From a virus, in UHGV virus genome UHGV-0008299: a stretch of DNA of 20,928 bases; one strand, 5' to 3'. Positions 7,031-20,695 of this stretch are shown here, one piece after another. The translations under genes were made by a program, and so were the position numbers. How positions within the stretch are numbered: the first letter of the stretch is position 1; each line of letters starts with the position of its first letter. The notes below the pieces were generated by a model. It saw nothing but the letters and a program-made list of their open reading frames with translations. It did no database searches and was not told the origin of the DNA.

Positions 7031-7055
7031 AGGGGCTTCGGCCCCTCTTTTTTTT
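7031..7055 (+). terminator. Rho-independent terminator after the coat gene
   Basis: aggggc-ttcg-gcccct perfect 6-bp GC stem with a 4-nt loop, followed by a 9-T run. Confidence 0.7.
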
Positions 7056-7065
7056 GGAGATCGAA

Positions 7066-7254
7066 ATGTCTCAAATCATGCTTTATAAGCCGGGCTCGAT
7101 GATCACCTGCGGCCCCCACTCGCTGGATTACATCATTGTTGATGACGAAGAAGTTAAATCTCACCTGAAAAAAGGTTGGGTGAAAACTCCTGAAGAAACC
7201 GCAACGAAGCAAAAAGTGGCTAAGGCGGAAGAAGATGGCGAAAACGAAGGGTGA
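7066..7254 (+). CDS. Hypothetical small protein between coat and gp4
   Basis: The track ORF 7054..7254 begins at TTG; the first ATG is at 7066, with a ggaga Shine-Dalgarno at 7056-7060. Acidic C-terminus. Overlaps the gp4-like start by 20 nt. Sf6-type phages carry a small ORF at this position. Confidence 0.45.
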   Translation: MSQIMLYKPGSMITCGPHSLDYIIVDDEEVKSHLKKGWVKTPEETATKQKVAKAEEDGENEG

Positions 7255-7696
7255 TCTCGTTCTAAAGGCTTTACGAAAAGCCGGGCTGTATTCCAATGCC
7301 ACGTTGACAGATGCTGACCCTCAGGCAATTGAAGATGCCATTAATGACCTCGAAGACATGATGGCAGCATGGCAGGCTAAAGGTATCGAGCTTGGATATC
7401 AGTTTGCTGATACAGAAAACGGCATCATGCCGTTACCTGACGATGATTCAGGTATCCCTGCATGGGCAAATGATGGCGTCGCTTTGAAGCTCGCTGTGCA
7501 AGTGTGCATGGATAACGTCATTCAGCCGTCAGACGCTCTCCTTACCGCTGCTGACAGTGCATATCAGACAATCTGCATCGCTTTAACCAAAATACCACCA
7601 CTTGAGCGGCGAAATGACATGCCTCGCGGTAGTGGTAACAAAAGCGCGTTTACGTGGAATCGGTTTTACATCGAGAAAGATAATCCGAGTACGTGA
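7235..7696 (+). CDS. Head completion / tail adaptor protein (P22 gp4-like)
   Basis: 153 aa. N-terminus MAKTKGDLVLKALRKAGLYSNATLTDADPQAIEDAINDLEDMMAAW closely parallels P22 gp4 as I recall it. Confidence 0.8.
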   Translation: MAKTKGDLVLKALRKAGLYSNATLTDADPQAIEDAINDLEDMMAAWQAKGIELGYQFADTENGIMPLPDDDSGIPAWANDGVALKLAVQVCMDNVIQPSDALLTAADSAYQTICIALTKIPPLERRNDMPRGSGNKSAFTWNRFYIEKDNPST

Positions 7697-7705
7697 GGTG
7701 AATAA

Positions 7706-9124
7706 ATGCCGATTCAGCAACTTCCGCTCATGAAAGGTGTCGGCAAAGATTTCCGAAACGCCGACTATATCGACTATCTGCCAGTGAATATGTTGGCTAC
7801 ACCCAAAGAAATCCTGAACAGCAGCGGATATCTTCGCTCATTCCCGGGCATTGCCAAACGTTCTGATGTGAACGGTGTATCGCGCGGAGTCGAGTACAAC
7901 ATGGCGCAGAGTGCTGTTTATCGCGTGTGTGGTGGGAAGCTCTACAAAGGCGAAAGCGAAGTCGGTGACGTCGCTGGAAGTGGTCGCGTATCAATGGCGC
8001 ATGGTCGAACATCTCAGGCTGTAGGCGTTAATGGTCAACTGGTCGAGTATCGCTATGATGGCACGGTTAAAACCGTCTCAAACTGGCCTACAGACAGCGG
8101 ATTCACGCAGTATGAGTTAGGTTCGGTTCGTGACATTACTCGCTTACGTGGGCGTTATGCGTGGTCAAAAGACGGTACTGATTCATGGTTCATCACTGAC
8201 CTTGAAGACGAATCGCATCCTGACCGTTACAGCGCACAATATCGTGCCGAGTCTCAGCCTGACGGCATCATCGGCATCGGAACATGGCGAGACTTCATCG
8301 TCTGCTTTGGTTCATCAACGATTGAGTATTTCTCCCTGACTGGCGCAACCACTGTTGGTGCCGCTTTGTATGTCGCACAGCCATCGCTGATGGTGCAGAA
8401 AGGCATTGCCGGGACTTACTGCAAAACGCCATTCGCTGATTCGTATGCGTTCATCAGCAATCCGGCAACTGGTGCGCCATCTGTATACATCATCGGCTCC
8501 GGTCAGGTATCACCAATCGCCAGCGCGAGCATTGAGAAAATACTACGCTCCTACACTGCTGATGAACTGGCTGATGGTGTGATGGAGTCTCTGAGATTTG
8601 ATGCTCATGAGTTGCTGATTATCCACCTTCCGCGTCACGTCCTCGTGTACGACGCATCTTCAAGCGCCAATGGTCCGCAATGGTGTGTGCTGAAAACAGG
8701 CCTGTATGACGATGTGTACCGCGCTATCGACTTCATTTACGAAGGCAATCAGATAACGTGCGGCGATAAGCTGGAATCGGTTACCGGCAAATTGCAGTTC
8801 GATATCAGCAGCCAGTACGACAAGCAACAGGAACACCTGCTGTTTACTCCACTCTTCAAAGCGGATAACGCCAGAGTTTTCGACCTTGAAGTTGAATCGT
8901 CAACTGGCGTAGCTCAGTACGCCGACCGCCTGTTCCTCTCTGCAACCACTGACGGCATAAATTACGGGCGTGAGCAGATGATTGAACAGAATGAACCGTT
9001 CATTTACGACAAACGTGTTTTGTGGAAGCGAGTCGGGCGCATCAGGAAAAATGTTGGCTTCAAATTGCGCGTTATCACGAAGTCACCTGTCACTCTGTCT
9101 GGCTGCTCTATTAGGCTGGAGTAA
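7706..9124 (+). CDS. Tail hub protein (P22 gp10-like)
   Basis: 472 aa, the same length as P22 gp10. N-terminus MPIQQLPLMKGVGKDF... matches my recollection of gp10. Confidence 0.85.
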   Translation: MPIQQLPLMKGVGKDFRNADYIDYLPVNMLATPKEILNSSGYLRSFPGIAKRSDVNGVSRGVEYNMAQSAVYRVCGGKLYKGESEVGDVAGSGRVSMAHGRTSQAVGVNGQLVEYRYDGTVKTVSNWPTDSGFTQYELGSVRDITRLRGRYAWSKDGTDSWFITDLEDESHPDRYSAQYRAESQPDGIIGIGTWRDFIVCFGSSTIEYFSLTGATTVGAALYVAQPSLMVQKGIAGTYCKTPFADSYAFISNPATGAPSVYIIGSGQVSPIASASIEKILRSYTADELADGVMESLRFDAHELLIIHLPRHVLVYDASSSANGPQWCVLKTGLYDDVYRAIDFIYEGNQITCGDKLESVTGKLQFDISSQYDKQQEHLLFTPLFKADNARVFDLEVESSTGVAQYADRLFLSATTDGINYGREQMIEQNEPFIYDKRVLWKRVGRIRKNVGFKLRVITKSPVTLSGCSIRLE

Positions 9125-9126
9125 TA

Positions 9127-9621
9127 ATGATTTCACATGAAGAGTTGAAGCGTCATTTATCATATGACCCAGAAACCGGGGTTTTTACCCGAAAAATATC
9201 AAATACAGCGAGCGTCACCGTTGGTGATGAAGCGGGAACCATGTGCACTGGTTATTTAAGGATAATGGTCTGTGGTAAGAGATACTTAGCGCATAGGCTT
9301 GCTTGGTTTTATATGACAGGAAAACCTGCAAATTGCTTAATAGATCATATTAACGGAGACAGAACGGATAACAGATTTTCAAATTTAAGATTGGCAAATA
9401 GATCCCAGAATGGGATGAACAGGAATATTCAAAGAAATAATAAGTCAGGATATCCGGGTGTCTGTTGGCACAAAAATCTCTGCAAGTGGACTGTTTCTTT
9501 CAAGAAAAATAAAAAACAGGTTCACGTTGGATGCTTCGATGACCTGGACGAAGCTATCTCAGCATCAATGATGGCAAGAGCAGAAAATTTTGGAGAGTTT
9601 GCAAGGCAGAGGATTGAGTAA
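9127..9621 (+). CDS. HNH homing endonuclease with AP2-like DNA-binding domain
   Basis: 164 aa. HNH motif [23 protein letters not shown], followed by a C-terminal AP2-like segment ([10 protein letters not shown]...WTVSF...[10 protein letters not shown]). Visibly more AT-rich than the flanking gp10 and gp26 genes. Confidence 0.8.
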
Positions 9622-10322
9622 TGGTTGATTCATCACTGAATGATCCTGTCGTGGTTCAGGCTACGCGCCTTGATGCTTCAATTTTGCCACGCAATATATT
9701 CAGCCAGTCTTACCTGCTGTATGTCATAAATCAGGGAGCTGATGTCGGCGCAATTGCCGGGAAGGCAAATCAGGCTGGTCAGGGCGCTTACGATGCTCAG
9801 GTAAAAAACGATGAACAGGACGTCGAACTGGCTGATCACGACGCAAGAATCACCGCAAACACAAAAGCGATAAATCTACTTGAGGTCAGGTTAACAACTG
9901 CCGAAGGGAAGATAGTCGTACTGCGTAGCGATGTTGATTACTTGCTGGATGAGGTTATCGATATTCAGGCGCATCTGGTCACTGTTGACCAAAGACTGGA
10001 TGACGTAGAAAACGATGTCTCTGGCATTAAGAGTGATTACGTATCGAAAACCGTAACAGAATCGCAGTCTCTTGCGTCACCGCTGGATGTAAAAACATCA
10101 TATTCAGTTGATGGAATTCAGGTAGTTGGAGCAAGACAGACTGGATGGACTGCAGCCACAGGTACGCCACTTCTTGGCTCATTCAACGCAAACCAGTCAT
10201 ACACTGTCGGCACTACGTACACGCAATCCGAAGTCGCAGCTCTCGCAACAGGTTTGCAGCAGGCGCGGCAGCGTATTCTGGCGCTTGAAACAGCACTTAG
10301 ATTACATGGGCTGATTGACTGA
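9621..10322 (+). CDS. Tail needle (P22 gp26-like)
   Basis: 233 aa, the same length as P22 gp26. N-terminus ...[21 protein letters not shown]... and a central heptad coiled-coil region. Confidence 0.85.
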
Positions 10323-14909: not shown

Positions 14910-15230
14910 TTAGCGGTTGATGGTTGCTTTTTTCGGGTCATACCATCTCGGCCATTCTTTCAGGAATGGGAATGAGTCGGGAGCGTGGTTCTTTTTGTAC
15001 GATTTAAGCAGCCTTAACCGCTCAATCGCACACTCATAAACCTCTTGTTGCCCTGTAGTCATCTCGGTCCATGAAAGGTGATCCATTGATAAGACAACGT
15101 TTTCAGCTTCTTTTATGAGGGCGTTTTTATTTCTCACCGCAGCAGCATGGCTGACAGAGCAATCCTGCCATATTCTTAAAAGCCAAATAGCTAAGCAGAT
15201 GAAAAAAATGGTAGAGAGCGATATGTACAT
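14910..15230 (-). CDS. Hypothetical small membrane-anchored protein (immI cargo)
   Basis: 106 aa with ATG start. Strong Shine-Dalgarno (AAGGAG, reverse complement of 15238-15243) about 7 nt upstream. N-terminal hydrophobic helix ISLSTIFFICLAIWLLRIW. AT-rich. Confidence 0.5.
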   Translation of the reverse strand: MYISLSTIFFICLAIWLLRIWQDCSVSHAAAVRNKNALIKEAENVVLSMDHLSWTEMTTGQQEVYECAIERLRLLKSYKKNHAPDSFPFLKEWPRWYDPKKATINR

Positions 15231-15310
15231 GCCGATCTCCTTAGATTTATCAATGCTGCATGATTTTCAACAGACATCAATCATGCAGCTATAGGTAATA
15301 AATCAAGAAA

Positions 15311-15820
15311 CTATTGAGAACGTTTGTCTTTTTGAGACTCTAATATAGCCAATACCTTATAAAGAGATTGGTTTGTTGAGTCTAATTTTTGATCAGTGTT
15401 ATCAATCCTTGACTGTAATACTGATTGGTTGTTTTGGATAGTAGCCATTATCTCTGCCTTACTGGTTTGGATGTTTCCTGTTAGCTCTTGTCGTGATGAT
15501 TCAACTTTATCATCTATAGTGCCTCGAATCGTCCATGTGGCGGCAACGATAGAACCAATGATAGCAACTGCAACCCCGTATAGCTCTAAACGTTTCACGG
15601 TATCACGACCTTCTTCTTTGTGTTGCTCTTCTTGTAGGCTAAATATTTGTGGTTCCTTTGACGGATTTCTGTCAGTTGGTCTGTAATACTCTGAATATTT
15701 AGCGTTTTCTATTGAACTCCATAACGATTTGTCAAAGTCAAGGTTTTCATGTTGGCTTTGAGCATCTCCATAAATACTAGGTGATTTATTGTGAACATGT
15801 TGGTCAAACATTATCTCCAT
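15311..15820 (-). CDS. Hypothetical single-pass membrane protein with coiled-coil C-terminus (immI cargo)
   Basis: The track ORF starts at GTG 15823; the first ATG is at 15820. One central hydrophobic helix (LYGVAVAIIGSIVAATWTI) followed by a Gln/Ser/Asp-rich heptad-like region. Overlaps the upstream zinc-ribbon ORF by about 17-20 nt. AT-rich. Confidence 0.55.
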   Translation of the reverse strand: MEIMFDQHVHNKSPSIYGDAQSQHENLDFDKSLWSSIENAKYSEYYRPTDRNPSKEPQIFSLQEEQHKEEGRDTVKRLELYGVAVAIIGSIVAATWTIRGTIDDKVESSRQELTGNIQTSKAEIMATIQNNQSVLQSRIDNTDQKLDSTNQSLYKVLAILESQKDKRSQ

Positions 15821-16151
15821 CACCCTTTACGAATTTTCCAGAAGAGATATTTTCACTAACTTTGTTTAAACTAAAAAAGTGGAAGAAACCGCAAGTGGTG
15901 CATTGCATGGCTACCATGTTAAGACTATCGTTGCTATAAGTATCTTGATTAACAGGATTATTAGGCAAGCTTTTACCTGGTATGGATGGGCCTATAACTT
16001 CAACACCATCATCTTTTTTAAGATGCTCAGGTGCTAAAAGAGTCCAGTTTGTATTGCTGCATATTGGGCATACATAAGTTTTTTTGAATGAAGTCAAGTA
16101 ATTACTAAAAGACTCAAAAGTAACTTTTAAGTATTGCTCCTTACTGCTCAT
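15804..16151 (-). CDS. Hypothetical zinc-ribbon protein (two CxxC pairs), immI cargo
   Basis: 115 aa with CPIC and CTTC motifs about 55 residues apart. Its ATG overlaps the mnt stop (TAATG on the minus strand). gagg Shine-Dalgarno 6 nt upstream. AT-rich. Confidence 0.55.
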   Translation of the reverse strand: MSSKEQYLKVTFESFSNYLTSFKKTYVCPICSNTNWTLLAPEHLKKDDGVEVIGPSIPGKSLPNNPVNQDTYSNDSLNMVAMQCTTCGFFHFFSLNKVSENISSGKFVKGDGDNV

Positions 16152-16390
16152 TATTGGCCTCGAATCTTCTTAAGTACGCTAATTGCAATATCCATTGCTT
16201 CCTTCTCTGTTTTTGTGAGATCTTGAGATGTCGATGGTATGACCTTTTCTCTGTTAATCTTAATCCATAGCTGTATTGCAGCTATGATTTCAGCATTGAT
16301 AGAGCGCCTGTTTGTTGCCGCAATGTGAGTAAGCTGCTGCTTGATTTCACTTGGCATTCTTACGTTAAATTGTGGATCGTTTCTAGCCAC
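16151..16390 (-). CDS. mnt: Mnt repressor (ribbon-helix-helix)
   Basis: N-terminus MARNDPQFNVRMPSEIKQQLTHIAATNRRSINAEI parallels P22 Mnt (MARDDPHFNFRMP...NGRSMNSEL). GTG start with GGAGAG Shine-Dalgarno 4 nt upstream. Divergent from arc. Confidence 0.85.
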   Translation of the reverse strand: MARNDPQFNVRMPSEIKQQLTHIAATNRRSINAEIIAAIQLWIKINREKVIPSTSQDLTKTEKEAMDIAISVLKKIRGQ

Positions 16391-16483
16391 GTCGCTCTCC
16401 TGTTATTTGTTGACATGCTAGAACGGTAGTAGTACGCTTTCAATAGTAGTACGGTGCTATCATTTAATGGAATGGAGTGGAAT
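16391..16483. promoter_or_regulatory. Divergent mnt/arc control region (Pant and Pmnt candidates with repeated operator-like elements)
   Basis: Plus strand: -35 TTGACA at 16410-16415 and a weak -10 TACGCT at 16433-16438. Minus strand: -35 TTGAAA (reverse complement of 16438-16443) and -10 TAGCAT (reverse complement of 16415-16420), 17-bp spacer. Direct repeat TAGTAGTACG at 16427-16436 and 16444-16453. Confidence 0.5.
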
Positions 16484-16645
16484 ATGCAAGGCGCAAGAAA
16501 AATGCCGCAGTTCAATTTGCGGTGGCCTAAAGAAGTATTGGATTTGGTACGCAAGGTGGCGGAAGAGAATGGTCGGTCTGTTAACTCTGAGATTTATCAG
16601 AGAGTAATGGACAGCTTTAAGAAGGAAGGGCGCATTGGCGCGTAA
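16484..16645 (+). CDS. arc: Arc repressor (ribbon-helix-helix)
   Basis: [53 protein letters not shown] is near-identical to P22 Arc as I recall it. The track ORF starts further upstream at 16454, but ATG 16484 with ggagtgg upstream gives the canonical Arc length. Confidence 0.88.
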
Positions 16646-16725
16646 AGTTGAAGCCCCAACTACGGGAACAGTCAGGGCTTCGGTTGTCGGTAAATTCGTG
16701 GAGAAAAACCAACATGAATAGTATA
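16646..16725 (-). ncRNA. sar: sar-like antisense RNA candidate (promoter plus transcript)
   Basis: Minus-strand -10 TATACT (reverse complement of 16720-16725) just inside ant. Transcription from about 16712 would run about 68 nt through the ant ribosome-binding site to a hairpin (GAAGCCC/GGGCTTC, 16650-16681) followed by CUUUA. P22 has a 68-69 nt sar RNA at this position. Confidence 0.4.
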
Positions 16726-17649
16726 GCAATTTTAGAAGCAGTGAACACCTCTTACGTGCCTTTCAATGGTCAGCAGATTTTAACCGCTGTGGCTGCCGGA
16801 GTGACTTATGTAGCGATGCGTCAAATTGTGGAAAACATTGGTATCGACTGGACTGGTCAATCTGTTAAGTTGCGTAAAATGAAGGACAAATTCAACTGTA
16901 GAGATATCTCTATGGTTGCTGCTGATGGCAAGTTACGTAAGCTTTTATGCATCCCGCTGAAGAAGTTAAATGGATGGCTGTTCAGCATCAACCCTGAGAA
17001 AGTTCGTGCTGACATCCGTGATAAACTGATTCAGTACCAGGAAGAATGCTTTAGCGTGCTGCATGACTACTGGACTAAAGGTCATGTAGTTAACCCACGC
17101 AAAGCTAAAAAGGCGTTGCCGGGTAAAATCACCACTGAACAGCAGGAAGCCATTAAACAACTCGTCATGAGTCGCGGTCAGTCTCTGCCAAAAGAAAAAC
17201 AGGCTAAGGCGATGATCACCATGTGGTCGTCACTGAAATCCCATTTTGGATGTTCGTACAAAGAAATCAGTGAGGAGCAGTTTACCGAAGCACTATCACT
17301 TGCAGCTCGAGTTCCACTTGAAGGTGAGTTCATTGGCAAACAAGAGAAGAAAACCAACGAGCTTTCTGCAAAAGAAGCAAACAGCCTTGTATGGTTATGG
17401 GATTATGCTAACCGCTCACAGGCATTATTCCGCGAACTGTATCCGGCATTAAAACAAATTCAATCGAACTATTCCGGCAGATGCTACGACTACGGTCATG
17501 AATTCTCGTATGTTATCGGAATGGCGAGAGACGTTTTAATCAATCACACACGCGATGTTGATATCAATGAGCCAGACGGACCAACGAATCTTTCCGCATG
17601 GATGAGACTTAAGAATAAAGAATTACCTCCTTCAGTACATAACTACTGA
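16714..17649 (+). CDS. ant: Antirepressor Ant
   Basis: The track ORF starts at TTG 16648; the first ATG is at 16714 ([21 protein letters not shown]...), with ggag at 16700-16703. Position after arc, about 310 aa, as for P22 Ant. Confidence 0.8.
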
Positions 17650-17749: not shown

Positions 17750-20695
17750 ATGACAGACATTACAGCCAATGTGATCGTATCGATGCCTTCGCAACTCTTC
17801 ACTATGGCGCGTTCTTTTAAAGCCGTAGCCAATGGTAAAATTTATATCGGTAAAATTGACACTGACCCGGTAAACCCTGAAAACCAGATTCAGGTTTATG
17901 TGGAGAACGAAGACGGCTCTCACGTTCCTGTTTCGCAACCAATCATCATTAACGCCGCTGGTTATCCTGTATATAACGGACAGATTGCCAAATTCGTAAC
18001 TGAGCAAGGCCATTCTATGGCTGTTTATGATGCGTATGGTGCACAGCAGTTCTATTTTCCTAATGTGCTGAAGTATGATCCTGATCAGCTACGGCAGCAA
18101 TTAGAAGACCCAGATGGAGCGGATAAATACCCAAAACTTCAGATAGCAAGATGGAGAGACAGTTATGATCTAAGAGGTTGGGGGGCTATTGGTGATGGTG
18201 TTCATGATGACACATCAGCTCTATCAGAATTACTTTCTGTTGCAACAGGTGGTGAAAAGATAGATGGGCGAGGGCTTACTTTTAAAGTGTCAACTCTTCC
18301 GGATGTCAGTCGATTTAAAAATGCTCGTTTTTTATTTGAGAGAATACCGGGTCAGCCTCTTTTTTATGCTTCTGAAGATTTTATCCAGGGAGAGTTGTTT
18401 AAAATTACAGATACACCGTGGTACAACGCCTGGACGCAGGATAAAACGTTTGTATATGACAATGTCATCTATGCGCCTTTTATGGCTGGAGACCGCCATG
18501 GTGTAAATAACCTCCATGTTGCATGGGTTCGCTCAGGAGATGACGGGAAGACCTGGACAACGCCGGAATGGCTTACAGATTTACATGAAAACTATCCCAC
18601 AGTTAACTATCACTGCATGAGTATGGGGGTTGTCAGAAATCGCCTTTTTGCTGTAATTGAGACGCGGACCGTGAGCGGAAATAAACTGCAGGTTGCAGAG
18701 TTGTGGGATCGCCCAATGAGTCGCAGCCTTCGCGTTTATGGTGGTATAACGAAAGCAGCAAATCAGCAAGTCGCTTATATTCGCATTACTGATCACGGAT
18801 TATTTGCTGGTGATTTTGTCAACTTCTCAAACTCTGGTGTTACAGGTGTTACCGGGAATATGACGGTGACTACTGTTATTGATAAAAATACTTTTACAGT
18901 TACGACGCAAAATACCCAGGATGTGGATCAGAATAACGAGGGTAGATACTGGAGTTTTGGTACATCATTTCACTCGTCACCATGGAGAAAAACCCGTCTT
19001 GGAACTATTCCTTCTTTTGTTGACGGAAGCACTCCTGTTACTGAGATTCACAGTTTTGCGACGATTAGCGATAACAGTTTTGCTGTTGGCTACCATAATG
19101 GTGATATTGGGCCACGCGAGCTTGGGATACTCTATTTCTCTGATGCTTTCGGTTCTCCTGGTAGCTTTGTTCGCAGACGCATACCTGCAGAATATGAGGC
19201 GAATGCATCTGAGCCATGTGTAAAATATTATGATGGCATTCTGTATCTGACGACCAGGGGAACATTAAGTACTCAACCCGGTAGTTCATTACACAGAAGC
19301 TCTGATTTAGGTGCATCATGGAATTCTCTTCGCTTCCCAAATAATGTTCATCACTCAAACCTTCCTTTTGCCAAAGTTGGCGATGAGCTGATTATTTTTG
19401 GCAGTGAGCGCGCATTTGGTGAGTGGGAAGGAGGAGAACCTGATAACCGTTATGCAGGAAATTATCCAAGAACATTTATGACCAGAGTTAACGTCAATGA
19501 GTGGAGTCTGGATAATGTAGAGTGGGTTAATGTTACTGATCAGATTTATCAGGGCGGAATAGTTAACTCTGCGGTTGGTGTTGGTTCAGTTTGTATCAAA
19601 GACAACTGGCTGTACTACATTTTCGGTGGGGAAGACTTTCTAAACCCATGGAGCATAGGGGATAACAACAGAAAATATCCTTATGTTCACGATGGTCACC
19701 CGGCTGATTTGTATTGTTTCAGGGTAAAAATTAAACAGGAAGAATTTGTTTCAAGGGATTTTGTCTACGGAGCCACTCCTAACAGAACGCTTCCTACTTT
19801 TATGTCGACGTCAGGCGTGAGGACGGTTCCTGTACCCGTTGATTTCACAGATGATGTTGCCGTCCAGTCACTGACTGTCCATGCCGGTACATCAGGACAA
19901 GTTCGCGCGGAAGTCAAACTTGAGGGTAATTACGCCATTATTGCGAAGAAAGTACCGTCTGATGATGTTACCGCTCAGAGATTAATCGTTAGCGGCGGTG
20001 AAACAACGTCTTCAGCAGATGGTGCAATGATAACGTTGCATGGTTCCGGAAGCAGTACTCCACGTCGCGCGGTATATAACGCACTCGAACATCTTTTTGA
20101 GAACGGAGATGTTAAACCTTATCTTGATAATGTAAATGCTCTTGGTGGTCCGGGAAACAGGTTCTCGACAGTTTATCTTGGCTCCAACCCTGTAGTTACC
20201 AGTGACGGAACATTAAAGACAGAGCCGGTCTCTCCTGATGAAGCATTGCTGGATGCCTGGGGTGACGTCAGGTATATCGCTTATAAATGGCTGAACGCTG
20301 TCGCTATAAAGGGGGAAGAAGGGGCGAGGATACATCATGGTGTAATCGCGCAGCAACTTCGTGATGTTCTTATTTCTCACGGACTCATGGAAGAAGAAAG
20401 CACAACATGCCGCTATGCCTTTCTTTGTTATGACGATTATCCCGCAGTATATGATGACGTCATTACTGGCCAAAGGGAAATGCCGCTGACTGATAATGAC
20501 GGGAGCATCATTGTTGATGAGGATGATAATCCAGTGATGGTAATGGAAGACATCATTGAGCGCGTTGAAATAACGCCAGCAGGATCTAGATGGGGGGTCA
20601 GACCTGATCTCTTATTCTATATCGAGGCAGCATGGCAGCGCAGAGAAATAGAAAGAATAAAAGCTAGGTTAGACTTAATAGAAGGGAAGCACTAA
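17750..20695 (+). CDS. Tailspike: P22-type head-binding domain fused to a sialidase-like (endosialidase-type) receptor domain and C-terminal intramolecular chaperone domain
   Basis: 981 aa. The first ~115 residues ([11 protein letters not shown]...VLKYDPDQ) parallel the P22 gp9 head-binding domain. Downstream there are two Asp-box motifs (SGDDGKTW at 18533-18556, SSDLGASW at 19298-19321) and a C-terminal region with an S-x4-K motif (SDGTLK, 20201-20218) and ...[20 protein letters not shown]..., resembling the self-cleaving chaperone domain of K1 endosialidases. Confidence 0.8.

Follow-up and report, generated by a model that had tools for sequence, protein, structure and literature searches.

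What is a small, AT-rich, nuclease-like open reading frame (ORF) doing between two virion genes, gp10 and gp26, that directly follow one another in related P22-like phages? We addressed this question in a stretch of 20,928 nt from the virus genome UHGV-0008299 (hereafter "the window"; all coordinates that carry no locus handle are window positions), in which an ORF of the HNH-AP2 type separates the gene of the tail hub from that of the tail needle. Our analysis argues for a homing endonuclease gene of the HNH(HNN)-AP2 type, free-standing and site-specific, that is resident at the P22-like gp10/gp26 junction, a reading to which we give a probability of roughly 80%. The ORF and its two neighbours are the following.

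9127..9621, + strand: HNH-AP2 (HNN-AP2 type) endonuclease ORF, ATG start, 164 aa, identical to RefSeq WP_021529423.1
7706..9124, + strand: gp10, tail hub or head closure protein Hc3 (PF11134, E 1e-299; phrog_578)
9621..10322, + strand: gp26, tail needle, native backbone (phrog_1219, E 2e-113)

A previous sequence-only reading had placed this ORF between gp10 and gp26, and Pfam and PHROG matches that identified the neighbours (with gp14 (DUF2824) and then gp7 found 3' of gp26) confirmed its placement. It had also described the insert as AT-rich, and the guanine-plus-cytosine (GC) content of the HNH ORF is indeed 0.396, compared to 0.509 for gp10, 0.483 for gp26 and 0.504 for the remaining late operon. 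The tight overlaps that it had claimed at both ends were found at the downstream end, where the HNH stop codon TAA (9619-9621) and the gp26 ATG (9621-9623) share 1 nt in a TAATG overlap; upstream, however, the string TAATAATG is present as described, but the gp10 stop codon TAA (9122-9124) is followed by a 2-nt spacer (TA) before the ATG at 9127. The adjacency of gp10 and gp26, which had been put forward for P22, was verified in the insert-free relatives HK620, IME10, Sf6, Sf101, NM-3 and SI8 (P22 is not among them): the two genes meet in a TAATG overlap in HK620, IME10 and Sf6, and across a 3-nt spacer in Sf101 and in the Salmonella phages NM-3 and SI8. Since gp10 keeps its own stop and gp26 its own start, the HNH gene lies outside any intron or intein. 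A gathering-score scan of the Rfam families gave no match at the site, whether to a group I or group II intron or to any other family (the sole match is a sar RNA elsewhere in the window), ruling out an intron or a non-coding RNA at the junction, and no promoter or terminator belonging to the HNH ORF was detected, with counts of such signals not above the shuffled expectation.

Comparison with empty sites showed that the inserted cassette includes more than the HNH ORF, with these parts.

7706..9106, + strand: gp10 body (native backbone) as far as the left cassette border (PF11134), 93-95% identical to insert-bearing and insert-free relatives
9107..9124, + strand: recoded last five gp10 codons plus stop, the left end of the cassette, TCT ATT AGG CTG GAG TAA (SIRLE-stop)
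9118..9121, + strand: GGAG, a Shine-Dalgarno-like motif 5 nt before the HNH start, read from the sequence and made by the recoding
9607..9621, + strand: displaced original gp10 tail, forming the last four HNH codons, CAG AGG ATT GAG TAA (QRIE-stop)
9113..9125 and 9610-9622, + strand: imperfect 13-nt direct repeat from a repeat search, left copy AGGCTGGAGTAAT, right copy AGGATTGAGTAAT

At empty sites (HK620, IME10, Sf6 and E. coli prophages), the sequence reads ...GGC TGC CAG ATA AGG ATT GAG TAA TGG and gp10 ends in ...GCQIRIE-stop, so that the tail found there, CAG ATA AGG ATT GAG TAA (QIRIE-stop), has 6 mismatches to the recoded tail. Carriers read ...GGC TGC TCT ATT AGG CTG GAG TAA TA ATG on the left, the last triplet being the HNH start, and ...GCA AGG CAG AGG ATT GAG TAA TGG at the right end. 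The displaced tail is the empty-site gp10 tail minus its ATA codon and is otherwise identical to it, a T/C polymorphism at 9615 included, since the same one occurs in the empty-site gp10 tail of APEC O1; it retains the AGGA ribosome-binding motif of gp26 (9610-9613) together with the TAATG stop/start overlap. Homologues that are about 50% identical stop at ...GEFARxx and have no displaced tail, and the last HNH residues, encoded by this tail, have low confidence in the structural model and are disordered in it. The recoded and the displaced tails together make up the imperfect direct repeat, whose two copies are 497 nt apart, exactly the length of the insertion in alignments with empty sites. 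As for the GGAG motif, we infer that it acts as the ribosome-binding site of the HNH gene.

The recoded tail goes together with the insert. SIRLE-stop is present in every insert-bearing E. coli P22-like locus that was read, amounting to 16/16 insert-bearing E. coli genomes vs 0 of about 725 insert-free ones, and the best insert-free match to the junction probe differs from it by precisely the six recoding mismatches. That SIRLE-stop might be an ordinary gp10 allele was considered and rejected, as Sf6, Sf101 and the Salmonella phages read QIRIE-stop or QIRLE-stop; BLAST had extended some insert-free matches to 9125, and those of Sf101 and the Salmonella phages to 9128, and these sequences were then read directly. 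Empty junctions of the HK620, IME10 or CUS-3 type contain GTCTGGCTGCCAGATAAGGATTGAGTAATGGCTGAT. We also observed a 6-1-6 palindrome, TCTGGC-T-GCCAGA, across the insertion point of HK620-type empty sites (L004, which is HK620, L010, L015, L016 and L017), at a position equivalent to window 9098-9110. It is broken in insert-bearing genomes (GCTCTA) and imperfect or absent in empty sites of the IME10, Sf6 and Sf101 types, and it may be part of the target site or a chance occurrence.

We then asked how the cassette is distributed. Among 37 phage records matching the junction region, a single one, Escherichia phage vB_EcoP-683R2, carries it (99.8% identity), and both flanks match with a 497-bp gap in IME10, HK620, CUS-3, HF4s and about ten more. 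Our sample of 5426 complete E. coli genomes contained 918 that match the gp10 region and 741 that match a 131-bp junction probe; the HNH gene is found in 16 of these 741-918 genomes with the junction and is never less than 99.7% identical, with 13 copies intact and 3 split by the insertion sequence IS2. IMG/VR added 11 further loci with an identical junction layout, and every copy that was examined sits between gp10 and gp26. The site is empty in nearly all P22-like relatives compared: about 98% of them lack the insert and its GC content is 0.40, rather than the ORF being conserved in all P22-like genomes with a backbone-like composition. Regarding decayed copies, three E. coli genomes, for example FDAARGOS_1280 (L008 2761-3989), have the gene interrupted by IS2 roughly 36 codons from its start, and in one IMG/VR contig (L036 2500-2991) a 1-nt deletion in a T run shifts the HNH frame, which could be a sequencing error. 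Judging from their sequences, such split or frameshifted copies look like the decay stages expected of a selfish gene.

The carriers were then compared with each other and with insert-free genomes. The 497-bp cassette shows 0-2 differences between carriers, with nine loci varying at just positions 9456 and 9615, and its GC content is 0.40 in every background vs about 0.50 in the flanks. It is found in at least six gp10 backgrounds that are about 6% apart, the gp10 bodies of carriers being 93-95% identical to each other, and five distinct gp26 N-termini adjoin the same cassette. The carriers do not form one group, since they resemble insert-free genomes more than they resemble one another, in gp10 as well as in gp26. 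For gp10, 683R2 (with insert) shares 99.5% identity with Sf6 (without insert) vs about 94% with other carriers; for gp26, XJ23PTE1 (with insert), whose needle is of the knob type and 317 aa long, shares 98.6% identity with Ecol_276 (without insert) vs 56% with other carriers. Flank polymorphisms are unlinked to the cassette from 9100 leftward (7 nt) and from 9625 rightward (4 nt), and a comparison of the flanks of insert-bearing loci found no co-conversion beyond the 18-nt tail. Because the cassette is near-identical across diverged backgrounds, it is mobile: a segment spanning about 9107-9621 has been transferred between P22-like genomes that are themselves diverged, at a time that is recent compared to the divergence of its flanks. 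Such a distribution is what one would expect from the homing-gene class, with presence or absence of a 497-bp insertion-deletion at one fixed site, and with an element that is more alike than its flanks in carriers that do not form a single group. The idea that the endonuclease drives localized conversion of neighbouring structural genes then stands for the last five gp10 codons, but not further, as the flanks are otherwise unlinked for this gene.

In the same genomes, window 7054-7254 and 7235-7696 (a small ORF after the coat gene, through gp4) make up a swapped module that is about 98% identical to carriers L005 and L007 and 40-65% identical to carriers L001 and L006; the background in which the cassette moves is therefore mosaic.

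Does the ORF encode a protein with the properties of a homing endonuclease? The following parts could be delineated.

9127..9276, + strand: N-terminal beta-strand region, residues 1-50 (predicted strands E11-14, E19-22, E38-40 and E43-48)
9283..9417, + strand: HNH_3 nuclease core, residues 53-97 (Pfam HNH_3)
9343-9348 (D73-H74), 9382-9384 (N86) and 9409-9411 (N95), + strand: catalytic/metal residues, codons confirmed in the window sequence
9445..9585, + strand: AP2-type DNA-binding domain, residues 107-153, three-stranded sheet plus helix (Pfam AP2, fold search)

The Pfam model HNH_3 (PF13392) matches with 58.7 bits against a cut-off of 24.8 (E 4e-16) and with all 46 model positions covered, the AP2 model reaches 23.3 bits, under its gathering cut-off of 33.3 (E 8e-5), and PHROG_99 "HNH endonuclease" matches with E 4e-70. 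In a phmmer alignment, D73, H74, N86 and N95 pair with D74, H75, N87 and N96 of I-HmuI (residue numbers by our own count). Across 52 homologues, D73, H74, N86 and N98 are invariant and N95 is conserved in at least 90%. As sequence searches against the PDB gave weak matches (E 0.004 for the Plasmodium AP2 domain 3igm and E 0.19 for I-HmuI), both domains were confirmed by a fold search, using an AlphaFold2 model of the 164-aa protein with a predicted local distance difference test (pLDDT) score of 92.3. Foldseek aligned this model with I-HmuI (1u3e_M) at a probability of 1.00 over 113 columns, with a root-mean-square deviation (rmsd) of 4.1 and a template modelling (TM) score of 0.43, a partial match as the C-terminal domains differ, and with the plant AP2/ERF structures 7et5, 7et4 and 1gcc at a probability of 1.0 and an rmsd of 1.5-2.4 over about 50 residues. 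By analogy with I-HmuI, residues 1-50 are likely to contact DNA. The boxes AHRLAW (55-60), DNR (81-83), NLR (86-88) and QN (94-95) are all found and no flanking CxxC dyads are present; by these boxes and the absent Cys dyads, the protein fits the "HNN-AP2" group of Xanthomonas phages (PMC2248197). Many homologues have precomputed PF00847 matches, and 3578 phage records contain homologues that are at most 48% identical, frequently as several copies per genome. Altogether, the sequence comparisons show an intact I-HmuI-like nuclease core and an AP2 domain in a protein under purifying selection.

Some public labels of this gene are misleading, since it is called "endolysin" in vB_EcoP-683R2 (ON470594, L001 3528-4022), and homologues in the Salmonella phages STP03 and S4lw are labelled "endolysin" or "putative class I holin", which the domain evidence contradicts. 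The RefSeq label of WP_021529423.1 is already "HNH endonuclease".

We then turned to the age of the association between the gene and the junction. After the near-identical copies, the closest proteins are P0003 (78% identical in amino acids) and P0004 (75%). Both are encoded on metagenomic P22-like contigs, with gp10 (PF11134) on one side and a needle-like gene on the other; gp10 is only 66% identical there to that of the window, and the HNH genes of the diverged loci are 80% (L021-L023) or 72% (L025) identical to that of the window at the nucleotide level. All of these diverged loci share the same layout: gp10 ends in CSIRVE-stop or CSVRLE-stop, a 2-nt spacer follows, and the HNH ORF ends in KRIE-stop and overlaps onto gp26 as TAATG or TGATG, with an HNH GC content of 0.40-0.41 in a background of about 0.50. 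The ratio of nonsynonymous to synonymous divergence (dN/dS) between the window gene and its L021 orthologue is 0.08 (dS 1.3), with comparably low values for the N-terminal, HNH and AP2 parts taken separately. Because the layout is the same in diverged lineages and dN/dS is 0.08, the gene is probably functional, and it has long been resident at the junction; its near-identity among E. coli phages points to a recent spread. The suggestion that the gene was recently acquired is hence apt for its sweep through the E. coli P22-like phages, but not for the gene lineage and its link to the junction, which are old (orthologues with dS above 1).

In phage HZ41 and in 16 of the 5426 E. coli genomes, the gp10/gp26 junction holds a second, different nuclease gene, which encodes a 181-aa protein with NUMOD4 and HNH_3 domains (WP_021514124.1).

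L003 1547-2092 (phage HZ41) and L011 2047-2592 (E. coli SBF22), outside the window: NUMOD4-HNH_3 gene

This gene resembles that of the window in its junction, in being equally sporadic and in belonging to the HNH_3 superfamily, but it has an N-terminal NUMOD4 and no AP2 domain, shares 32% identity with the window protein over a 56-residue core, and has a 21-nt spacer with its own AAGGAG. It also brings about 320 bp of foreign gp10 3' sequence, which is 60-69% identical to other gp10 genes vs 92-99% upstream; this tract is 96-100% identical between two NUMOD4 carriers whose upstream gp10 sequences differ by about 6%, and is a classic co-conversion tract. Localized gene conversion, as initially proposed for the window, is then clearest for the NUMOD4-type gene in other genomes, and not in the window itself. 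Since a second, unrelated nuclease gene occupies the junction, the junction is a recurrent target.

How might the cassette move? As neither a promoter nor a terminator signal belongs to the HNH gene, it would probably be co-transcribed with the late tail genes, and the GGAG created in the recoded gp10 tail would serve for its translation. During co-infection, or upon an encounter between a phage and a related prophage, the enzyme would bind the uninterrupted junction of an insert-free genome around TCTGGCTGC followed by CAGATAAGGATTGAGTAATGG, and nick or cut at the empty junction or very near to it; by analogy with I-HmuI, it is likely to be a monomeric single-strand nickase. Recombinational repair off the insert-bearing genome would then copy the cassette in. 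Carriers would be immune, the insertion and the six gp10-tail substitutions disrupting the target site. Given such self-immunity, the recognition site would span the intact junction, since the insertion and the recoded tail are the only consistent differences between carriers and non-carriers. The flanks would not be dragged along because the break would fall right at the insertion point. The cost to the phage would be low, with SIRLE-stop substituting for the C-terminal QIRIE-stop of gp10 and with the HNH frame exiting through the displaced tail, so that gp26 would retain its ribosome-binding site and its coupled start.

Sporadic presence at one site, a uniform cassette, intact catalytic residues and purifying selection all favour the interpretation as a homing endonuclease gene, which the sequence-only reading had proposed. 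Several points weigh against it: the AP2 score falls short of the Pfam gathering threshold; nuclease action and homing are predictions for this protein and for its close relatives; the target site was deduced solely from differences between carriers and non-carriers, and expression from the late operon is likewise a deduction; and the flanks that were compared contain no co-conversion tract past the 18-nt tail, which is unusual for nuclease-driven homing. The cassette could also have been moved by ordinary homologous recombination, in a phage group that is very mosaic.

This last point leads to the strongest competitor, according to which the ORF is a passive passenger, a homing gene or former homing gene that no longer homes, its patchiness resulting from ordinary recombination in mosaic genomes and from occasional loss. 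The very sharp borders with no flanking co-conversion would agree with this, as would the visibly mosaic late genes of P22-like phages (gp10 alleles about 94% identical, gp4 and gp26 modules swapped) and the existence of copies inactivated by IS2 or by a frameshift. Nevertheless, we consider it as improbable: a passenger would not be expected to show a dN/dS of 0.08 and intact catalytic residues, nor 0-2 differences in 0.5 kb over at least six backgrounds that are about 6% diverged; it would require many independent crossovers within a few nt of both borders, which breaks at the junction explain better; and the site is also occupied in lineages whose gp10 is merely 66% identical.

A much less probable alternative is that the nuclease is kept mainly as a weapon, cutting insert-free P22-like genomes in mixed infections or in prophages, with self-propagation being secondary. 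The biochemistry would be the same as for homing, strong purifying selection and long persistence at the site would be accounted for, and nucleases at exchange boundaries, as well as phage competition, have been discussed for other phages (PMC10448857). Yet only about 2% of junctions carry the gene, giving no sign of a fixed advantage, and inactivated copies persist. Such a use is compatible with homing and does not exclude it. Finally, the ORF might encode an accessory HNH protein for morphogenesis or packaging, comparable to the terminase-associated HNH of HK97-type cos phages, or else a late-gene regulator of the AP2 type. Either would suit a DNA-binding domain encoded inside the virion assembly operon, but they hardly deserve consideration, as the gene is missing from about 98% of similar phages, including the working phages HK620, Sf6, CUS-3 and IME10, lies 6.5 kb downstream of the large terminase gene (1144-2559) rather than adjacent to it, belongs to the HNH_3 family with AP2 rather than to the terminase-associated HNH type, and has a fully conserved nuclease motif. 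A packaging HNH of the HK97 gp74 type in particular was discarded, the ORF being neither by the terminase or portal genes nor required across the group.

Coming back to the homing endonuclease gene, its anatomy, its presumed target and the second nuclease may be combined into one more specific proposal, which we put forward tentatively and rate at somewhat under even odds: a splicing-free, "self-patching" insertion inside gp10, five codons before its stop, with the intact junction as the target and with two HNH families competing for it. The cassette would travel with recoded gp10 codons, and its frame would run through the displaced tail, thereby preserving the coupled start of gp26. The conservation of this layout between lineages with dS above 1 suggests that the layout itself is under selection. 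If this proposal is true, the recognition site would be the intact junction of gp10 tail and gp26 start, holding in HK620-type sites a palindrome that the recoding destroys, and two opposite strategies would be found at one junction, a minimal 18-nt patch and a 320-bp foreign gp10 tract. The patched-junction layout is modestly interesting; the element itself is an ordinary HNH-AP2 homing gene and no new kind of element.

The locus may nevertheless be a useful system, as it offers nucleotide-exact borders, hundreds of empty sites, decayed copies and a second unrelated nuclease at the same junction, in P22-like phages that are temperate and intensively studied. It could serve to measure the spread of homing genes between prophages and their influence on mosaic boundaries within tail genes, and also to find the DNA target of an HNH-AP2 enzyme, from a family with very few characterised members.

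How does this gene compare to known systems? I-HmuI of Bacillus phage SPO1 (PDB 1U3E) has the same His-Me/HNH_3 core with a D-H...N...N site and an N-terminal beta-strand region, and is a similarly modular and probably monomeric protein, but its gene is located within a group I intron and its C-terminal module is a helix-turn-helix, whereas the window gene is free-standing and has an AP2 domain, and the similarity between the two sequences is weak (E 0.19). I-HmuI reportedly nicks DNA (Shen et al. 2004, a study cited in PMC2248197), and by analogy the window enzyme is likely to be a strand-specific nickase. The free-standing genes SegF, SegG and Mob of T4-type phages lie between or at the ends of essential genes, are sporadic and spread by break repair; their products are of the GIY-YIG or of other HNH types, and they usually cleave some distance away and carry flanking markers along. 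Unlike in this intronless homing of T4, the linked flank of the window cassette is limited to 18 nt.

The HNH-AP2 architecture is that of a described homing endonuclease family (PMC2248197; PMC10448857), and the wider family goes back to Magnani et al. 2004, as cited in both of these papers. The HNN-AP2 genes of the Xanthomonas phages Xp10, OP1 and Xop411 (PMC2248197) resemble the window gene by their two-domain architecture, their boxes HRLAW/DNR/NLR/(E/Q)N, the lack of a Cys-dyad zinc motif, their free-standing nature and a life cycle of gain and decay. They differ from it in being scattered in virulent phages, when the window gene is a single copy at one junction of a temperate P22-like phage, and in that the window cassette brings a replacement for the codons that it displaces. 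The "IPA-HNH" genes of phage ICP1 (Barth et al. 2023, PMC10448857) also combine HNH and AP2 and adjoin essential structural genes, with gene borders that coincide with mosaic boundaries between phages. Their domains are too diverged to be detected by the Pfam HNH_3 model (PMC10448857), whereas the window protein matches this model strongly, and the window gene has no associated multi-kilobase island. We found no earlier account of an insert at the P22-like gp10/gp26 junction in the searchable literature, which did not cover the most relevant paper.

Other features of the window lie away from the junction. Three minus-strand ORFs occupy a low-GC stretch between gene 16 and the immI region; none has a Pfam match, their matches being limited to the unknown-function PHROGs 10450, 24865 and 4293, and they may be accessory genes expressed from the prophage. 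The immI-type region and the tailspike gene follow.

14910-16150, - strand: low-GC stretch (0.35-0.39) between gene 16 and the immI region
14910-15230, 15311-15823 and 15804-16151, - strand: three ORFs in the low-GC stretch
16151-17649: immI-type region
16151-16390, - strand: Arc-like repressor
16646-16713, - strand: sar antisense RNA (Rfam RF00262, 89.5 bits)
16648-17649, + strand: P22-type antirepressor
17750-20695, + strand: tailspike, with a P22-type head-binding domain, then endosialidase domains and an S74 chaperone peptidase

CUS-3 itself is without the HNH insert. Given the endosialidase domains of its tailspike, the window belongs to a CUS-3-like phage that is specific for the K1 capsule.

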